Source: a virus
Length of the DNA: 16,129 nt
UHGV virus genome: UHGV-0120322
Reading direction: 5' to 3' (one strand)
The notes under the pieces were generated by a model that saw only the letters and a list, made by a program, of their open reading frames with translations, ran no database searches and was not told the DNA's origin. The position numbers were made by a program, and so were the translations under genes. Numbering within the stretch: the stretch's first letter is position 1; every line of letters starts with the position of its first letter. Shown here piece after piece: positions 1,691 to 16,129 of the stretch.

Positions 1691-2003
1691 TCTTGACCTT
1701 GTGTTGTGCGGATTGATATTCAGTGCTGATATTCACCTTTATAGCGAACACCTTTACCGGTTTATCGCCAAAGTGTGGATGTGTGATTGTCTTCACTTCA
1801 TATCCGTCATACGGAACATCAATTCTGCGACTGGAATCGTCGCGCTTCGGATATCCCTTTGTGATAATCAGGCGGTCATACTCCCGGAACATAATTCGCT
1901 TATTCCAATAGTCATTACACAGGCGATACTCCTCCGTTTTCTCTCCGCGAATCATGGCATCGAAAAATTCACTTTTAACAGGAAGTTGCAGGTTAGCCAT
2001 CAC
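1668..2003 (-). CDS. Hypothetical phage protein (111 aa), possibly ASCH/PUA-like fold
   Basis: ORF with 4-nt ATGA overlap to the upstream TraR-like gene; motif FFDAMIRGEKTEEYR is reminiscent of ASCH-type domains (weak recognition only). Confidence 0.5.
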   Translation of the reverse strand: MMANLQLPVKSEFFDAMIRGEKTEEYRLCNDYWNKRIMFREYDRLIITKGYPKRDDSSRRIDVPYDGYEVKTITHPHFGDKPVKVFAIKVNISTEYQSAQHKVKNVQSDLP

Positions 2004-2221
2004 TTAATCCCCCTTTGTTTGCGGATAAGCTCCAGATCTTGCTGGCAACTGGCGCAAGTTCGACAACCCTGAACGGCTAGGCGTCTTCGTTCATCTATCG
2101 GATCACCACACTCACAACAATGAGTGGCAGATACAGCCAGGTGGTTCAGGCGGCGCATTTTTATTGCTGTGTTGCGCTGTAATTCTTCTATTTCTGATGC
2201 TGAATCAATGATGTCTGCCAT
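2000..2221 (-). CDS. TraR/DksA-family C4 zinc-finger protein (73 aa)
   Basis: CxxC...(17 aa)...CxxC spacing (CCECGDPIDERRRLAVQGCRTCASC) characteristic of TraR/DksA C4 zinc fingers; common in lambdoid early-left regions. Confidence 0.7.
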   Translation of the reverse strand: MADIIDSASEIEELQRNTAIKMRRLNHLAVSATHCCECGDPIDERRRLAVQGCRTCASCQQDLELIRKQRGIK

Positions 2222-2273
2222 CTTCCATTAATCCCTGAATTGTTGGTTAATACGCTTGAGGGTGAATGCGAAC

Positions 2274-2300
2274 AATAAAAAAGGAGCCTGTAGCTCCCTG
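2274..2300 (-). terminator. Candidate intrinsic terminator for leftward transcription (stem GGAGC/GCTCC followed by U-run on minus strand)
   Basis: Minus-strand reading CCTCAGGGAGCTACAGGCTCCTTTTTTATTG: GC-rich hairpin plus T6 tract, in the 98-bp gap between two minus-strand genes. Confidence 0.45.
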
Positions 2301-2319
2301 AGGATTTTGCTTTTCATGT

Positions 2320-2601
2320 TCACCGTTCCTTAAAGGCGCCGTTTAACATACCGATTGCCAGACTTAAATGAGTCGGTGTGAATCCCATCAGCGTTACCGT
2401 TTCGCGGTGCTTCTTCAGTACGCTACGGCAAATGTCATCGACGTTTTTATCCGGAAACTGCTGTCTGGCTTTTTTGATTTCAGAATTAGCCTGACGGGCA
2501 ATGCTGCGAAGGGCGTTTTCCTGCTGAGGTGTCACTGAACAAGCCCCATGTCGGCAAGCATAAGCACACAGAATATGAAGCCCGCTGCCAGAAAAATGCA
2601 T
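2320..2601 (-). CDS. Hypothetical protein at the lambda orf61 position (93 aa from first ATG; true start may be internal)
   Basis: ORF directly downstream of the orf63-like gene; Cys/His-rich N-terminus without clear RBS, so start uncertain (in-frame GTG at codon 23 is an alternative). Confidence 0.45.
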   Translation of the reverse strand: MHFSGSGLHILCAYACRHGACSVTPQQENALRSIARQANSEIKKARQQFPDKNVDDICRSVLKKHRETVTLMGFTPTHLSLAIGMLNGAFKER

Positions 2602-2611
2602 TCAGTGGTTG

Positions 2612-2803
2612 TCATACCTGGTCTCTCTCATCTGCTTCTGCTTTCGCCACCATCATTTCCAGCTTTTGTGAAAGGGATGCGGCTAACGTATGAAATTCTT
2701 CGTCTGTTTCTACTGGTATTGGCACAAACCTGACTCCAATTTGAGCAAGGTTATGTGCCATCTCAATACTCGTTCTTAACTCAACAGGAGATGCTTTGTG
2801 CAT
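2612..2803 (-). CDS. Lambda orf63-like small protein (63 aa)
   Basis: 63-aa ORF with strong SD (GGGAGG 5 nt upstream of ATG); same size and position (second gene downstream of exo) as lambda orf63. Confidence 0.6.
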   Translation of the reverse strand: MHKASPVELRTSIEMAHNLAQIGVRFVPIPVETDEEFHTLAASLSQKLEMMVAKAEADERDQV

Positions 2804-2964
2804 ACCGCCTCCCGTTTATTATTTATCTTCTCAGCCAGCCGCTGTGCTTTCAGTGGATTTCTGATAACAGAAAGGCCGGGAAATACCCAGCCTCGCTTTG
2901 TAACGGAGTAGACGAAAGTGATCGCGCCTACCCGGATATTATCGTGAGGATGCGTCATCGCCAT
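2776..2964 (-). CDS. Lambda orf60a-like small protein (62 aa), start overlaps the 3' end of exo
   Basis: ORF starting 10 nt inside the end of exo with GGGGAG SD-like sequence; position equivalent to lambda orf60a. Confidence 0.4.
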
Positions 2965-3635
2965 TGCTCCCCAAATACAAAACCAATTTCAGCCAGTGCC
3001 TCGTCCATTTTTTCGATGAACTCCGGCACCATCTCGTTAAAACTCGCCATGTACTTTTCATCCCGCTCAACCACGACATAATGCAGTCCTTCACGCTTCA
3101 TACGCGGGTCATAGTTGGCAAAGTACCAGGCATCTTTTTGTGTCACCCACATGCTGTACTGCACCTGGGCCATGTAAGCCGATTTTATGGCCTCGAAACC
3201 ACCGAGCCGGAACTTCATGAAATCCCGGGAGGTAAACGGGCATTTCAGTTCAAGGCCGTTGCCGTCACTGCATAAACCATCGGGAGAGCAGGCGGTGCGC
3301 ATACTTTCGTCGCGATAGATGATCGGGGATTCAGTAACATTCACGCCGGAAGTGAACTCAAAGAGGGCTCTGGCGTCGTTCTCGTACTGTTTTCCCCAGG
3401 CCAGCGCCTTAGCGTTAACTTCCGGAGCCACACCGGTGCAAACCTCGGCAAGCAGGGTGTGGAAGTAGGACATTTTCATGTCAGGCCACTTCTTTCCGGA
3501 GCGGGGTTTTGCTATCACATTGTGAACTTCTGAAGCGGTGATGACGCCGAGCCGTAATTTGTGCCATGCATCATCCCCCTGTTCGACAGCTCTCACGTCG
3601 ATCCCGGTACGCTGCAGGATAATGTCCGGTGTCAT
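2955..3635 (-). CDS. exo: Lambda exonuclease, Red-alpha (226 aa), full length
   Basis: Translation [40 protein letters not shown]... recognised as essentially identical to phage lambda Exo over its full length. Confidence 0.97.
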
Positions 3636-4417
3636 GCTGCCACCTTCTGCTCAGTGGCTTTCTGTTTCAGGAATCCAAGAGCTTTCACTGCTTCGGCCTG
3701 TGTCAGTTCTGACGATGCGCGAATGTCGCGGCGAAATATCTGGGAACAGAGCGGCAATAAGTCGTCATCCCATGTTTTATCCAGGGCGATCAGCAGAGTG
3801 TTAATTTCCTGCATGGTTTCATCGTTAACCGGAGTGATGTCGCGTTCCGGCTGACGTTCTGCAGTGTATGCGGTATTTTCGACAATGCGCTCGGCTTCAT
3901 CCTTGTCATAGATACCCGCAAATCCGAAGGCCAGACGGGCACACTGAATCATGGCTTTATGCCGTAACATCCGTTTGGGATGCGACTGCCACGGTCCGGT
4001 GATTTCTCTGCCTTCGCGGGTTTTGAATGGTTCGCGGCGGCATTCATCCATCCACTCGGTAACGCAGATCGGATGATTGCGGTCTTTGCGGTAAATCCGG
4101 CATGTGCAGGATTCGTTGTCCTGTTCAAAGTTCATGCCGTCAAACTGCTGGTTTTCGTTGATGATGCGGGACCAGCCATCAACGCCCACCACCGGAACGA
4201 TGCCGTTCTGCTTATCAGGGAAGGCGTAAATTTCTTTCGTCCACGGATTAAGGCCGTACTGGTTGGCGACGATCAACAATGCGATGAACTGCGCATCGCT
4301 GGCATCACCTTTAAATGCCGTCTGGCGAAGAGTGGTGATCAGTTCCTGTGGGTCGACAGAATCCATGCCGACACGTTCAGCCAGCTTCCCAGCCAGCGTT
4401 GCGAGTGCTGTACTCAT
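3632..4417 (-). CDS. bet: Lambda Bet, Red-beta single-strand annealing protein (261 aa), full length
   Basis: Translation [59 protein letters not shown]... recognised as lambda Bet; ATGA overlap with exo. Confidence 0.97.
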
Positions 4418-4422
4418 CCGTT

Positions 4423-4533
4423 TTATACCTCTGAATCAATATCAACCTGGTGGTGAGCAATGGTTTCAACCATGTACCGGATGTGTTCTGCCATGCGCTC
4501 CTGAAACTCAACATCGTCATCAAACGCACGGGT
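4423..4533 (-). pseudogene. gam: gam fragment: only the C-terminal ~36 codons of lambda Gam ([36 protein letters not shown]) are present
   Basis: C-terminal 36 aa match lambda Gam; the N-terminal 48 aa of the 84-aa ORF (4423..4677) are unrelated and encoded antisense to P; junction at about 4531-4534. Confidence 0.85.
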
Positions 4534-5137
4534 ACAACAGGTAGCGCAGATCATCAATGGTGTGTTCAGCCAGTTACTGGCAACTTTCCCGGCGAGCCTG
4601 GCTAACCGGGACCAGAACGAACTGAACGAAATCCGCCGCCAGTGGGTTCTGGCTTTCCGGGAAAACGGGATCACCACGATGGAACAGGTTAACGCAGGAA
4701 TGCGCGTAGCCCGTCGGCAGAATCGACCATTCCTGCCATCACCCGGGCAGTTTGTTGCCTGGTGCCGGGAAGAAGCATCCGTTACCGCCGGGCTGCCAAA
4801 CGCCAGCGAGCTGGTTGATATGGTTTACGAGTATTGCCGGAAACGTGGCCTGTATCCAGATGCAGAGTCTTATCCGTGGAAATCAAACGCGCACTACTGG
4901 CTGGTTACCAACCTGTATCAGAACATGCGGGCCAATGCGCTGACTGATGCGGAATTACGGCGCAAGGCTGCCGATGAACTGGCCTGTATGACAGCGCGAA
5001 TTAACCGTGGTGAGGCGATACCTGAACCAGTAAAACAACTTCCTGTCATGGGCGGGAGACCGCTTAATCGTGTTCAGGCTCTGGCGAAGATCGCAGAAAT
5101 CAAAGCGAAGTTTGGGCTGAAAGGAGCAAGTGTATGA
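4532..5137 (+). pseudogene. peaD: Replication protein P, 5'-truncated (lacks about the first 30-40 codons and its own start/RBS); equivalent to peaD of DLP12
   Basis: Frame translates as [30 protein letters not shown]...KAKFGLKGASV, matching lambda P from about residue 33 to the C-terminus; no ATG or SD at the 5' end. Confidence 0.9.
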
Positions 5138-5427
5138 CGGGCAAAGAGGCAATTATTCATTACCTGGGGACTCATAAGAACTTCTGTGCGCAGGACGTTG
5201 CCGCGGTAACAGGCGCAACAGTAACCAGCATAAATCAGGCTGCGGCTAAAATGGCGCGGGCAGGAATCTTGGTCATTGATGGTAAGGTCTGGCGAACGGT
5301 GTATTACAGATTCGCTACCAGGGAAGAACGGGAAGGAAAGGTGAGCACTAACCTGATTTTTAAGGAGTGTCGCCAGAGTGCCGCGATGAAGCGGGTGTTG
5401 ATGGTTTGGGGGAGGGTAGGGGTATGA
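5134..5427 (+). CDS. ren: Ren (lambda Ren homolog, 97 aa)
   Basis: MTGKEAIIHYLGTH...VTSINQAAAKMARAG...VWRTVYYRFATREEREGK recognised as lambda Ren; ATGA overlap with P stop. Confidence 0.9.
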   Translation: MTGKEAIIHYLGTHKNFCAQDVAAVTGATVTSINQAAAKMARAGILVIDGKVWRTVYYRFATREEREGKVSTNLIFKECRQSAAMKRVLMVWGRVGV

Positions 5428-5624: not shown

Positions 5625-5851
5625 GCAACATCGACAAACCAATGACAAACCGTGAACTGGTGGATGCCGCCATTGAATTGGCCGGAGAGTTTTATGCGAT
5701 GCAGGGCTATTCGCATCGTCCTGGCTTCAAGTATTGGCAATCTCCGCACCCGCATGAGCGCCTGTGCTTTGAAATGGCTTGTGTGGCATTCGAAACCATT
5801 CGCGGCTCAGATGTAATGGACGCCGTATCTGAGTTGGAGGATGAAGAATGA
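5621..5851 (+). CDS. Hypothetical small phage protein (76 aa), N-terminus MSNIDK
   Basis: AGGAGG SD 7 nt upstream, ATGA overlaps on both sides (translational coupling). Confidence 0.55.
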   Translation: MSNIDKPMTNRELVDAAIELAGEFYAMQGYSHRPGFKYWQSPHPHERLCFEMACVAFETIRGSDVMDAVSELEDEE

Positions 5852-5964
5852 GCAACATCGACAAACGCGCATTACGTGAAATCGCTGAGGCAGCAGTTGG
5901 TGCACATGAGCGCCTTAGTGTTATGCCGCCTGATGACATTTTCGATATCTCACTGGCAGAATGA
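5848..5964 (+). CDS. Short ORF (38 aa) with MSNIDK N-terminus; probably the N-terminal part of a larger gene interrupted by in-frame TGA at 5962-5964
   Basis: GGAGG SD 7 nt upstream of ATG; same reading frame as the 5965..6261 ORF, which has no SD or ATG of its own. Confidence 0.4.
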   Translation: MSNIDKRALREIAEAAVGAHERLSVMPPDDIFDISLAE

Positions 5965-5991
5965 ACTCAGCTTGATGCAGATATCACTGCC

Positions 5992-6261
5992 TTGAACGCG
6001 CTGAACTCCGCAGCCAACCCAGCCACAGTGCTGGCGCTGCTGGATGAGCTGGAAGCCAAAGACCAGAGGATTGCTGTGCTGACCGAATCGCTCAAGCAGA
6101 CGGTTTCAGGATACAAATCCTGCCTGCGTACCGGACATGAGCGCATTCTTGACCTTGGCGGTGACTGTGACGCGCCCAAAGTGATGATTGCAGGCAATCC
6201 TGACATTCAGCAGGCGCAGAAGCTGATCGCCGCCGCATCCGGTAAAGGAGAGGCATCATGA
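5992..6261 (+). CDS. Hypothetical phage protein, C-terminal part; frame open from 5965 and contiguous with 5848..5964 across a single TGA
   Basis: ORF-track entry with TTG start and no SD; 3' end overlaps the next gene start (ATGA), so it sits in a translationally coupled chain. Confidence 0.5.
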   Translation: MNALNSAANPATVLALLDELEAKDQRIAVLTESLKQTVSGYKSCLRTGHERILDLGGDCDAPKVMIAGNPDIQQAQKLIAAASGKGEAS

Positions 6262-10118: not shown

Positions 10119-11201
10119 TTAGAACTGGTAAACCATACCTACAGCAACGATATCATCGGTAGCAACGCCAGATGCTTTCGTGAAATCGCTCTTATCAATC
10201 AGGTTGATTTTGTAGTCAACAAAAGTGGACATATTTTTGTTGAAGTAATAGGTTGCACCTACATCAACATATTCAACCAGGTCCTGATCACCCCAAACAC
10301 CCAAGTCTTTTCCTTTAGAATGCAGGTAAGCAACGGATGGACGCAGGCCGAAGTCGAACTGATATTGTGCAACAGCTTCGAAGTTTTGTGCTTTGTTGGC
10401 AATATGGTTATTACCAAAAACAGTCATGTTCTGGGTTTCAGAATAGGTGGTGGCCAGATAGATGTTGTTCGCATCATATTTCAGACCAGCTGCCCATACT
10501 TCAGCATTTTGACCAGAAGCATTCAGACCGTTGTTACCGTAGATAACCTGATTATTAGTGCGATCAGATTTAGCATAGGTTGCACCCACGCCGAATCCTT
10601 CATACTCATAAGTAGTTGAGAAACCGAAACCATCGCCATTAGCTTCAGTTACTTCTTTTCGGTCATTTTTGCCCTGATACTGAGCTGCAAAGTTCAGGCC
10701 ATCAACCAGACCAAAGAAGTCGTTGTTACGATAAGTTGCAACACCTGTGGTGCGACCAGTCATGAATACATCTGTTTGGGTCCAGGTATCGCCACCGAAT
10801 TCTGGCAGAACGTCGGTCCATGCACCAATATCGTATGCTACACCGTAGTTACGGCCATAATCGATGGAGCCGTAGTCACCGAATTTCAGGCCAGCGAAGG
10901 CAAGACGGGTTTTATCTTTGGAGGAACCTTGAGATTCAGCGCGGTTGCCTTTGAATTCATATTCCCACTGACCGAAACCAGTCAGTTGATCGTTGATTTG
11001 GGTTTCACCTTTGAAGCCAAGACGGGCATAAGTAGTATCACCATCATCTGCATCATTAGAGGAGAAGTAGTGCTTAGCATTAACTTTCCCGTACAGATCC
11101 AGCTTGTTACTGTCTTTATTATAAATTTCAGCTGCCTGAGCAGACATCGCCATCAGTACTGATGCAGCTACAGCAGAAATTGCCACTGTTAATTTTTTCA
11201 T
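10119..11201 (-). CDS. nmpC: Outer-membrane porin, OmpC/NmpC (Lc) family, intact (360 aa with signal peptide [23 protein letters not shown])
   Basis: Classic general-porin sequence ending in the C-terminal aromatic residue (...VGMVYQF); encoded antisense between Q and the lysis genes as in DLP12/PA-2. Confidence 0.95.
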
Positions 11202-14798: not shown

Positions 14799-15032
14799 TC
14801 AATCTGGTCTGACCTGCTTTCTGAGCAATTCAGTAATGTCACTCTTTTCTTTGTTTGCTTCAGGCGAAACTCTTTTTTCTGAGCACAGTCTTCGGCGGCA
14901 GGCTTCAATGACCCAGGCTGAGAAATTCCCGGACCCTTTTTGATCAAGAGCGATGTTAATTTGTTCAATCATTTGGTTAGGAAAGCGGATGTTGCGGGTT
15001 GTTGTTCTGCGGGTTCTGTTCTTCGTTGACAT
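14799..15032 (-). CDS. ylcI: Ribbon-helix-helix (Arc/MetJ/CopG-like) small DNA-binding protein, DUF3950/YlcI-like (77 aa)
   Basis: Basic N-terminus then RNIRFPNQMIEQINIALDQKG-SGNFSAWVIEACRRRL, a beta-strand/helix/G-turn/helix RHH pattern; the conserved NIRF motif is recalled for YlcI-type proteins (tentative). Confidence 0.6.
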   Translation of the reverse strand: MSTKNRTRRTTTRNIRFPNQMIEQINIALDQKGSGNFSAWVIEACRRRLCSEKRVSPEANKEKSDITELLRKQVRPD

Positions 15033-15189
15033 GAGGTTGCCCTGTATTCAGTGTCACTGATTTGTATTGTCTGAAGTTGTTTTTACGTTAAGTTGATGCA
15101 GATCAATTAATACGATACCTGCGTCATAATTGATTATTTGACGTGGTTTGATGGCGTAGATGCACGTTGTGACATGTAGATGATAATCA

Positions 15190-15420
15190 TTATCATTTTG
15201 CGGGTCCTTTCCGGCGATCCGACAGGTTACGGGGCGGCGACCTCGCGGGTTTTCGCTATTTATGAAAATTTTCCGGTTTAAGGTGTTTCCGTTCTTCTTC
15301 GTCGTAACTTAATGTTTTTATTTAAAATACCCCCTGAAAAGAAAGGAAACGACAGGTGCTGAAAACGGGCTTTTTGGCCTCTGTCGTTTCCTTTCTCTGT
15401 TTTTGTCCGTGGAATGAACA
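15190..15420. other. Lambda-type cos site: cosQ-side right-end sequence, cosN 12-nt cohesive end GGGCGGCGACCT at 15232-15243, cosB region up to the Nu1 start
   Basis: ...CCGACAGGTTACG|GGGCGGCGACCTCGCGGGTTTTCGCTATTTATGAAAATTTTCCGGTTTAAGG... recognised as the joined right and left ends of phage lambda with a few substitutions. Confidence 0.85.
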
Positions 15421-15648
15421 ATGGAAGTCAACAAAAAGCAGCTGGCTGACATTTTCGGTGCGAGTATCCGTACCATTCAGAACTGGCAGGAACAGGGAAT
15501 GCCCGTTCTGCGAGGCGGTGGCAAGGGTAATGAGGTGCTTTATGACTCTGCCGCCGTCATAAAATGGTATGCCGAAAGGGATGCTGAAATTGAGAACGAA
15601 AACCCGGCATCTGATGCCGTTAACGATTTGCTGAACACACCAGTGTAA
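15421..15648 (+). pseudogene. Terminase small subunit Nu1, N-terminal ~60 codons only, fused in frame to an unrelated 15-codon tail
   Basis: MEVNKKQLADIFGASIRTIQNWQEQGMPVLRGGGKGNEVLYDSAAVIKWYAERDAEIENE matches lambda Nu1 (winged-helix DNA-binding domain); the remainder NPASDAVNDLLNTPV does not. Confidence 0.85.
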
Positions 15649-15657
15649 GGGATGTTT

Positions 15658-15828
15658 ATGACGAGCAAAGAAACCTTTACCCATTACCAGCCGCTGGGCA
15701 ACAGTGACCCGGCTCATACCGCAACCGCGCCCGGCGGATTGAGTGCGAAAGCGCCTGCAATGACCCCGCTGATGCCGGATAAGTGGTGTGTAAATTCTAG
15801 CCCCATCATCTGTGTTTTTTTTCATTAA
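15658..15828 (+). pseudogene. Head decoration protein D fragment (first ~39 codons of lambda gpD, then unrelated sequence to a stop)
   Basis: [39 protein letters not shown] matches the lambda gpD N-terminus; diverges after PLM. Confidence 0.8.
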
Positions 15829-15893
15829 TTTCACCATGTTATAGTTTTATTTGTGAATTAAATCAATTATGGCAATGAATTACAAGGGGTTAA

Positions 15894-16129
15894 ATGCTGC
15901 CGCAGCATAGCGATATTGAAATAGCCTGGTATGCTTCAATACAGCAGGAGCCGAATGGCTGGAAGACCGTCACCACACAGTTCTACATCCAGGAATTCAG
16001 TGAGTATATTGCGCCACTGCAGGATGCTGTAGATCTGGAAATCGCAACGGAGGAAGAAAGATCGTTGCTGGAAGCCTGAAAAAAGTATCGGGTGCTGCTA
16101 AACCGTGTGGACACTTCCGTAGCACCAGA
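15894..16129 (+). pseudogene. Tail-fibre assembly protein (Tfa family) C-terminal fragment with in-frame TGA at 16077-16079 replacing the conserved Trp; runs off the window end
   Basis: ...[40 protein letters not shown] matches the Tfa C-terminal consensus ([17 protein letters not shown]) apart from the stop. Confidence 0.75.

Follow-up and report, generated by a model that had tools for sequence, protein, structure and literature searches.

The TGA codon ending tfaX in a DLP12-type prophage is best read as decay of a tail fiber assembly gene relic

Introduction

The closest described counterpart of the reading frame considered here is tfaX of Escherichia coli K-12 (b0563, formerly ylcE; UniProt TFAX_ECOLI), which has the same 61-amino acid open reading frame in the same type of prophage. 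In strain MG1655 it is annotated at 582875..583060 as a 186-nt open reading frame between ybcY and appY in the cryptic prophage DLP12. The tfaX remnant and its annotated stop are already known and catalogued.

Several genome-wide studies have touched on this region of the K-12 chromosome. Studies of promoter islands and work by genomic SELEX count the ybcY/tfaX spacer, as well as the tfaX/appY region, among the horizontally acquired “promoter islands” to which H-NS binds (PMC3946193, PMC3661553, PMC4469952), and the region has been reported to be both bound and silenced by H-NS (PMC3946193, PMC3661553). A sigma-70 promoter for tfaX, ATGGCA-15-TTAAAT, was predicted from SELEX data (PMC3946193). 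In an overexpression screen, tfaX was listed among the genes that raise the kanamycin MIC 3-fold (PMC12924614), and a macroarray study reported a 2.55-fold increase for tfaX in one comparison of biofilms (PMC3646849). These two results are weak hints of activity, neither of which shows the native protein, and the literature searched gave no direct evidence of a TfaX protein. UGA readthrough in E. coli occurs through Trp-tRNA(Trp) competing with RF2 (PMC10570021).

Here, the tfaX frame at the end of a 16,129-nt stretch of viral DNA (the window, meaning the whole stretch analyzed) is compared with these described systems, with its same-locus alleles and with the tail fiber assembly (Tfa) family.

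Results

The tfaX frame of the window occupies positions 15894..16079 on the plus strand and consists of 61 codons and a TGA, as given by the open reading frame list and its translation, which is identical to K-12 b0563 “protein TfaX”. Read from the ATG at 15894, the frame ends in ...SLLEA before the TGA at 16077-16079, and the base following the stop is an A, the first of an AAA. Retranslation showed that the coordinates and the reading of the tail fiber assembly frame over 15894-16129, as given in an earlier note on this DNA, are correct. The identity extends beyond the protein, with positions 15824-16129 matching E. coli K-12 MG1655 base for base, TGA included. The exact 61-amino acid protein, which is the TFAX_ECOLI UniRef entry, is found on at least 1000 contigs. 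Past the TGA, an in-frame continuation (16080..16129, plus strand) adds 16 residues up to the window end, in which the conserved Tfa C-terminal motif is still readable. In K-12 and in the E. coli chromosomal locus L001 the frame goes on for 8 codons beyond the window end before a TAA-TAA, and the frame beyond the TGA is intact for 24 codons. That the conserved motif can still be read after the stop suggests that the nonsense mutation may be recent.

The surroundings of the frame are those of a DLP12-type prophage. The window carries intD, recombination genes, the series ybcN-ninE-ybcO-rusA-ylcG-quuD, an ompC/nmpC-like porin gene, essD-rrrD and nohD, and in its closest relative intD adjoins a tRNA-Arg. 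In all E. coli chromosomal loci examined (L001-L003 and K-12, 98-100% identity), appY lies approximately 0.55-0.6 kb downstream of tfaX; the window stops before appY. Upstream, K-12 DLP12 has tfaD and ybcY, whereas in the window both are deleted and a fragment of the gene D/C head region abuts the tfaX spacer. Two junctions could be placed in this part of the window. Codons 1 to approximately 60 of nohD (from 15421 on; positions 1-63 of 164 of the Phage_Nu1 profile) are joined at approximately 15602/15603 to the 3′ end of a lambda-type C/Nu3 gene, which together with the first ~40 codons of the head-decoration gene D makes up 15603-15777 (tblastn). The gene D fragment is in turn joined to the spacer upstream of tfaX at 15777/15778, both junctions having been placed by BLAST. 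An assignment of 15659-15777 to a terminase-A fragment was rejected, as tblastn identifies the start of gene D there, with the C/Nu3 3′ end before it. No single match covering at least 80% of 15600-16129, a segment that contains both junctions, was found in 5,426 complete E. coli genomes. The late region is heavily deleted, and its chain of junctions fits a dead element. The nmpC-like porin gene of the window is intact as a 360-codon open reading frame (10119-11201, minus strand); we take the K-12 copy to be interrupted by IS5. The intact porin gene, with the difference from K-12 in this respect assumed as just stated, and the unique junctions show that the prophage in the window is not K-12’s own.

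The TGA at 16077..16079 (plus strand) sits at the conserved tryptophan of the Tfa family and differs from TGG by one G-to-A transition. Alignment pairs it with Trp167 of lambda Tfa, and Trp stands in this motif in the intact Tfa proteins of lambda, phage PhiR29_2 and strain BE2-5. In order to cover the family more widely, 1.84 billion cluster representatives were scanned with a same-locus allele (P0002) as query, which returned 150 diverse relatives (the 150 best representatives, from clusters at 50% identity). Among these, 142 span the site; 141 have tryptophan and one has methionine. Closer relatives have tryptophan at this position in 143 cases, leucine in 4, arginine in 2 and proline in 1, with a further 28 not fitting the motif. 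The earlier note had held that the family has Trp where the stop sits, and had named alignment with intact homologs as the check, with a family lacking Trp there as the outcome that would speak against it. That alignment has now been made, Trp is present, and the observation stands. A stop at a conserved Trp is what the common G-to-A transition is expected to produce, because this is the only way in which TGG becomes a stop.

Two alternative accounts of the codon itself bear directly on this site. One is an error of sequencing or assembly at 16079 beside an A homopolymer (TGAAAAAAG versus TGGAAAAAG), and the site does border a run of six A. However, in the set of 5,426 complete genomes, 552 independent E. 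coli records, MG1655 among them, contain the exact 90-mer with TGA, as does phage PhiR68_2. With an exact 90-nt stretch recurring in that many complete records, the TGA is no sequencing artifact, and this account is extremely improbable. The other is that the UGA encodes selenocysteine, for which nothing speaks except that the codon is in frame; no SECIS family match was obtained at E values up to 1 in 15000-16129, and the homologs carry Trp at the site, not Cys or Sec. The probability of this reading is negligible.

The frame interrupted by the TGA is itself only part of a tfa gene. The Tfa-homologous segment (15984..16127, plus strand) comprises codons 31-78, breaks off where the window stops and corresponds to approximately the C-terminal quarter of a lambdoid Tfa. 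With the stop replaced by W for the profile search, residues 31-78 match positions 75-122 of the 131 in Pfam PF02413 (Caudo_TAP) at 70.3 bits (cut-off 22.1; E 2.2e-19). Calling the frame a tail fiber assembly gene fragment, as the earlier note did, is correct. Against residues 141-191 of the 194 of lambda Tfa, 44 of 51 residues are identical (86%). Approximately 140 N-terminal Tfa residues are absent and the similarity to Tfa is confined to the last ~50 residues; relative to a full-length Caudo_TAP domain, the N-terminal part is missing, and relative to an uninterrupted frame with the conserved Trp, there is the TGA at 16077-16079. Lacking the first ~140 of ~194 Tfa residues, tfaX therefore encodes no normal Tfa chaperone. 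While tfaX shares the C-terminal motif with lambda Tfa, it ends in WLIQP where lambda has WPAVPVME. Its position is also different from that of a working tfa gene. In the window tfaX does not directly follow stf, having the gene D fragment and a deletion junction upstream, and in related loci tfaX comes after ybcY and the real tfa after stf.

The first 30 codons of tfaX (15894..15983, plus strand) are not Tfa-like, have zero Pfam matches and mark the tfaX locus; lambda homology starts at residue 27. A stretch related to these codons occurs in phage Ayreon, downstream of a tfa 3′ end. We considered whether a full-length Tfa bearing the same 30 codons exists, and this was rejected, as the longer matches (P0181, P0182, P0236 and others) are products of deletions that created fusions with pieces of terminase or NohD, and not ancestors. 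The NCBI annotation pipeline PGAP describes the gene as “tail fiber assembly protein; incomplete; missing N-terminus”, TGG alleles included, and adds “internal stop” only for the TGA alleles. Because the TGG alleles too are marked as missing the N-terminus, the open reading frame was already truncated at its N-terminal end before the nonsense mutation occurred.

The homology to tfa also accounts for a match to a noncoding RNA family. If the region were the small RNA IS009 (Rfam RF02111), the coding frame would be irrelevant, and the full-length Rfam model does match 15917-16120 at 110 bits (E ~1e-26). This score is below the gathering threshold of 117, however, and the consensus of the model, unpaired at the position of the TGA, has UGG there. 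Intact tfa genes (those of lambda and PhiR29_2, and tfaD of K-12) reach 224-230 bits with the same model over their 3′ 199 nt. As intact tfa 3′ ends reach such scores, the match to tfaX reflects homology to tfa coding sequence, and there is hardly any likelihood that a small RNA explains the locus. As a side observation, IS009 effectively equals the last 199 nt of the lambdoid tfa coding sequence (for example L007 4857-5055 and L006 1451-1649), and “IS009 sRNA” annotations in prophages probably merely mark tfa genes.

The arrangement of related loci places tfaX in a pair of repeats. The tfa 3′ end forms a direct repeat of ~170 nt, whose copies lie ~929 bp apart and flank an oppositely oriented ybcY methyltransferase gene. 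This repeat around ybcY was found in K-12, BE2-5, PhiR29_2 and Escherichia albertii (repeat loci L007 4857-6102, L005 1480-2727 and, for E. albertii, L021 5995-7628), and tfaX is its downstream copy. Intact downstream copies of 89 amino acids, which end as a canonical Tfa does, are kept by E. albertii, E. coli ECMA0423 and a Shigella flexneri genome.

The tfaX-specific 5′ segment is present in 3,444 of 5,426 complete E. coli genomes (63%) at 95-100% identity, and most tfaX loci other than those with the TGA are different alleles that keep the Trp. One of these is that of strain A39, which differs from the window at one position over 306 nt, the G-to-A change that makes the TGA, and which has an 86-amino acid open reading frame. 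The DNA 3′ of the stop is identical to that of the TGG alleles. At the ybcY-tfaX-appY-ompT locus, TGG is found in A39, RM14516, 2013C-4282 and others, giving the 86-amino acid frame that ends in ...DIEWLIQP; the exact 90-mer with TGG occurs in 9 complete E. coli records of the same 5,426 genomes. Further Trp-keeping alleles have 82 amino acids (common in O157), 101 amino acids (O55:H7 and phage PhiR29_2) or the 89 amino acids seen in E. albertii, ECMA0423 and the S. flexneri genome. Compared with the window, the TGG alleles share the start and the first 61 codons, have Trp at codon 62 and vary in their ends downstream; they adjoin ybcY in every locus examined, and appY-ompT follows where the downstream genes were read, except in PhiR29_2, which is without appY. 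In total, allele lengths are 82, 86, 89, 101 and 105 amino acids, with unrelated tails. A K-12-like record with TGG (BHUCD02) was considered as a possible revertant and rejected, as 44 mismatches to MG1655 in 3.09 kb identify it as another strain.

Many other independent lesions are found at the same locus, including frameshifts after residues 42-53 and deletions that fuse the frame to pieces of terminase or NohD, and in phage Kati the glutamine codon at position 33 has become TAG in addition to the TGA. This spectrum of lesions is that of unconstrained decay, unlike that of a maintained recoding site. Recombinant 3′ ends excepted, the alleles differ by 0-3 bases per 306 nt, which is too little for a meaningful dN/dS.

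These alleles also bear on whether the stop could be functionally leaky, with the UGA followed by A being read by Trp-tRNA at a useful frequency, so that both a 61- and an 86-amino acid TfaX are made and the ancestral Trp is restored. Trp-tRNA(Trp) does read UGA in E. coli (PMC10570021), Trp is the ancestral residue at this stop, and the 24 codons of downstream frame are intact. On the other hand, two features expected of programmed readthrough are absent here: the stop is not conserved among homologs, as TGG is found both in same-locus alleles and in the family (in most alleles and in all but one of the 142 family representatives), and the extension is not conserved as coding sequence, as tails vary and many frameshifts lie upstream. 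The A that follows the stop opens an ancestral Lys codon, the 86-amino acid allele having TGG AAA and others TGG AAT; since it is present in TGG alleles, this A was inherited rather than acquired. Any readthrough product would still be without approximately 72% of Tfa, and the region is reported to be H-NS bound and silenced (PMC3946193, PMC3661553). Wherever TGG has mutated to TGA, misreading by Trp-tRNA would put the Trp back, and this is no evidence of function. Functional leaky termination is accordingly very unlikely.

The earlier note had linked this stop to a second TGA in the window, at 5962-5964, and had seen in the two UGA-A events a pattern compatible with Trp-tRNA misreading. The second TGA (within an open reading frame context of 5848-6261, plus strand) interrupts an ead/Ea22-like gene (Pfam PF13935). 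The intact homologs of phages mEp043 and Bas106 read GGA (Gly) there, and because the codon changed from GGA to TGA, the two stops have no common origin in Trp. A 90-mer search at the 5962 site, which matched 56 complete E. coli genomes, found no exact TGG version. In strain S51, the one match that was read, the same TGA is present and PGAP annotates an “internal stop”. In addition, A is the next base for 33% of the TGA trinucleotides that the window contains, which puts UGA-A at no more than chance. With a companion that replaces Gly and not Trp, an inherited A, an open reading frame that was already a relic and many independent lesions at the tfaX locus, the supposed pattern was not borne out.

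Finally, the sequence upstream of the frame was considered together with the possibility that the 61-amino acid TfaX is a genuine small protein, with the TGA as its plain stop and the truncation having created or refined a new short gene. The AT-rich spacer upstream of tfaX (15778..15893, plus strand; GC 0.34) is the K-12 ybcY-tfaX spacer, its left end being the deletion junction with the head-gene fragment. A Shine-Dalgarno-like AAGGGG lies at 15884-15889, 4 nt before the ATG, as would suit translation of the short frame. The two elements of the predicted promoter are found in the window at 15869-15874 (ATGGCA) and 15890-15895 (TTAAAT), where the -10 box overlaps the ATG, and a transcript from it would therefore begin within the open reading frame and be without its ribosome-binding site; judged from the sequence, this promoter could not express the frame together with that site. 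A scan for consensus promoters and terminators gave no more matches than shuffled sequence. The listing of tfaX in the K-12 MG1655 RefSeq annotation as a coding sequence and not a pseudogene favors the small protein, as do the kanamycin MIC result upon overexpression (PMC12924614), the 2.55-fold increase in the biofilm macroarray (PMC3646849) and the frequency of the TGA allele (552 complete records, at least 1000 contigs). PGAP, by contrast, calls tfaX a pseudogene, the many different truncations at the locus favor no particular length, and the frequency of the allele can be attributed to clonal sampling of K-12-like strains. Taken together, a genuine small protein is improbable, if somewhat less so than the other alternatives considered here.

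Discussion

The reading that fits these observations best, to which we assign a probability of roughly 0.9, is that the TGA in tfaX reflects neutral decay of a vestigial lambdoid tfa 3′ fragment in a DLP12-type cryptic prophage, for which no recoding mechanism is needed. It brings together what was observed directly, namely that the sequence is identical to K-12 tfaX, that the gene is truncated, that one base separates it from the TGG alleles and that many alternative lesions occur. The earlier note had allowed that the stop may simply be pseudogenization, and this was the right reading, the gene being a truncated relic for which other lineages carry other lesions.

On this reading, tfaX is the downstream one of the two tfa 3′ ends that flank ybcY in related phages and prophages, and is fused to approximately 30 unrelated codons that supply the ATG. 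In the lineage of K-12 and the window, one G-to-A change turned the conserved TGG into TGA, shortening an 86-codon relic open reading frame to 61 codons. The mutation was presumably neutral, and the dead DNA may persist because it adjoins appY and ompT, cargo genes that have been retained and with which we infer that it hitch-hikes.

A function for the short tfaX frame is possible, as its 5′ segment is retained in 63% of genomes and intact 89-amino acid versions exist. A more specific proposal would be that the relic is expressed despite H-NS silencing, that background misreading of UGA by Trp-tRNA, which is stronger in strains of the K-12 type and in certain growth conditions, yields a little of the 86-amino acid form beside the 61-amino acid form, and that either form serves the cell in some way, such as through the reported effect of overexpression on kanamycin MIC; we regard this as a long shot.

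The flagged stop is the annotated end of K-12 tfaX, and with the collapse of the supposed two-UGA-A pattern it matters little in itself. It is of use as a worked example, in that a stop at a conserved Trp codon should be taken for recoding only where homologs share that stop.

Two further records containing tfaX deserve mention. Phage PhiR68_2 (L004, PV340576.1), deposited as a “complete phage genome”, carries ybcY, a TGA-type tfaX, appY and ompT at 1776-5256; either the cargo island is packaged by DLP12-like phages or the record contains host DNA. In the 3,287-bp contig DEQI01000113.1 (L023), assigned to the metagenome-assembled genome “Planococcaceae bacterium UBA3370”, a 255-nt stretch is 100% identical to the K-12-type tfaX allele, which is probably E. 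coli contamination of this Firmicutes metagenome-assembled genome.
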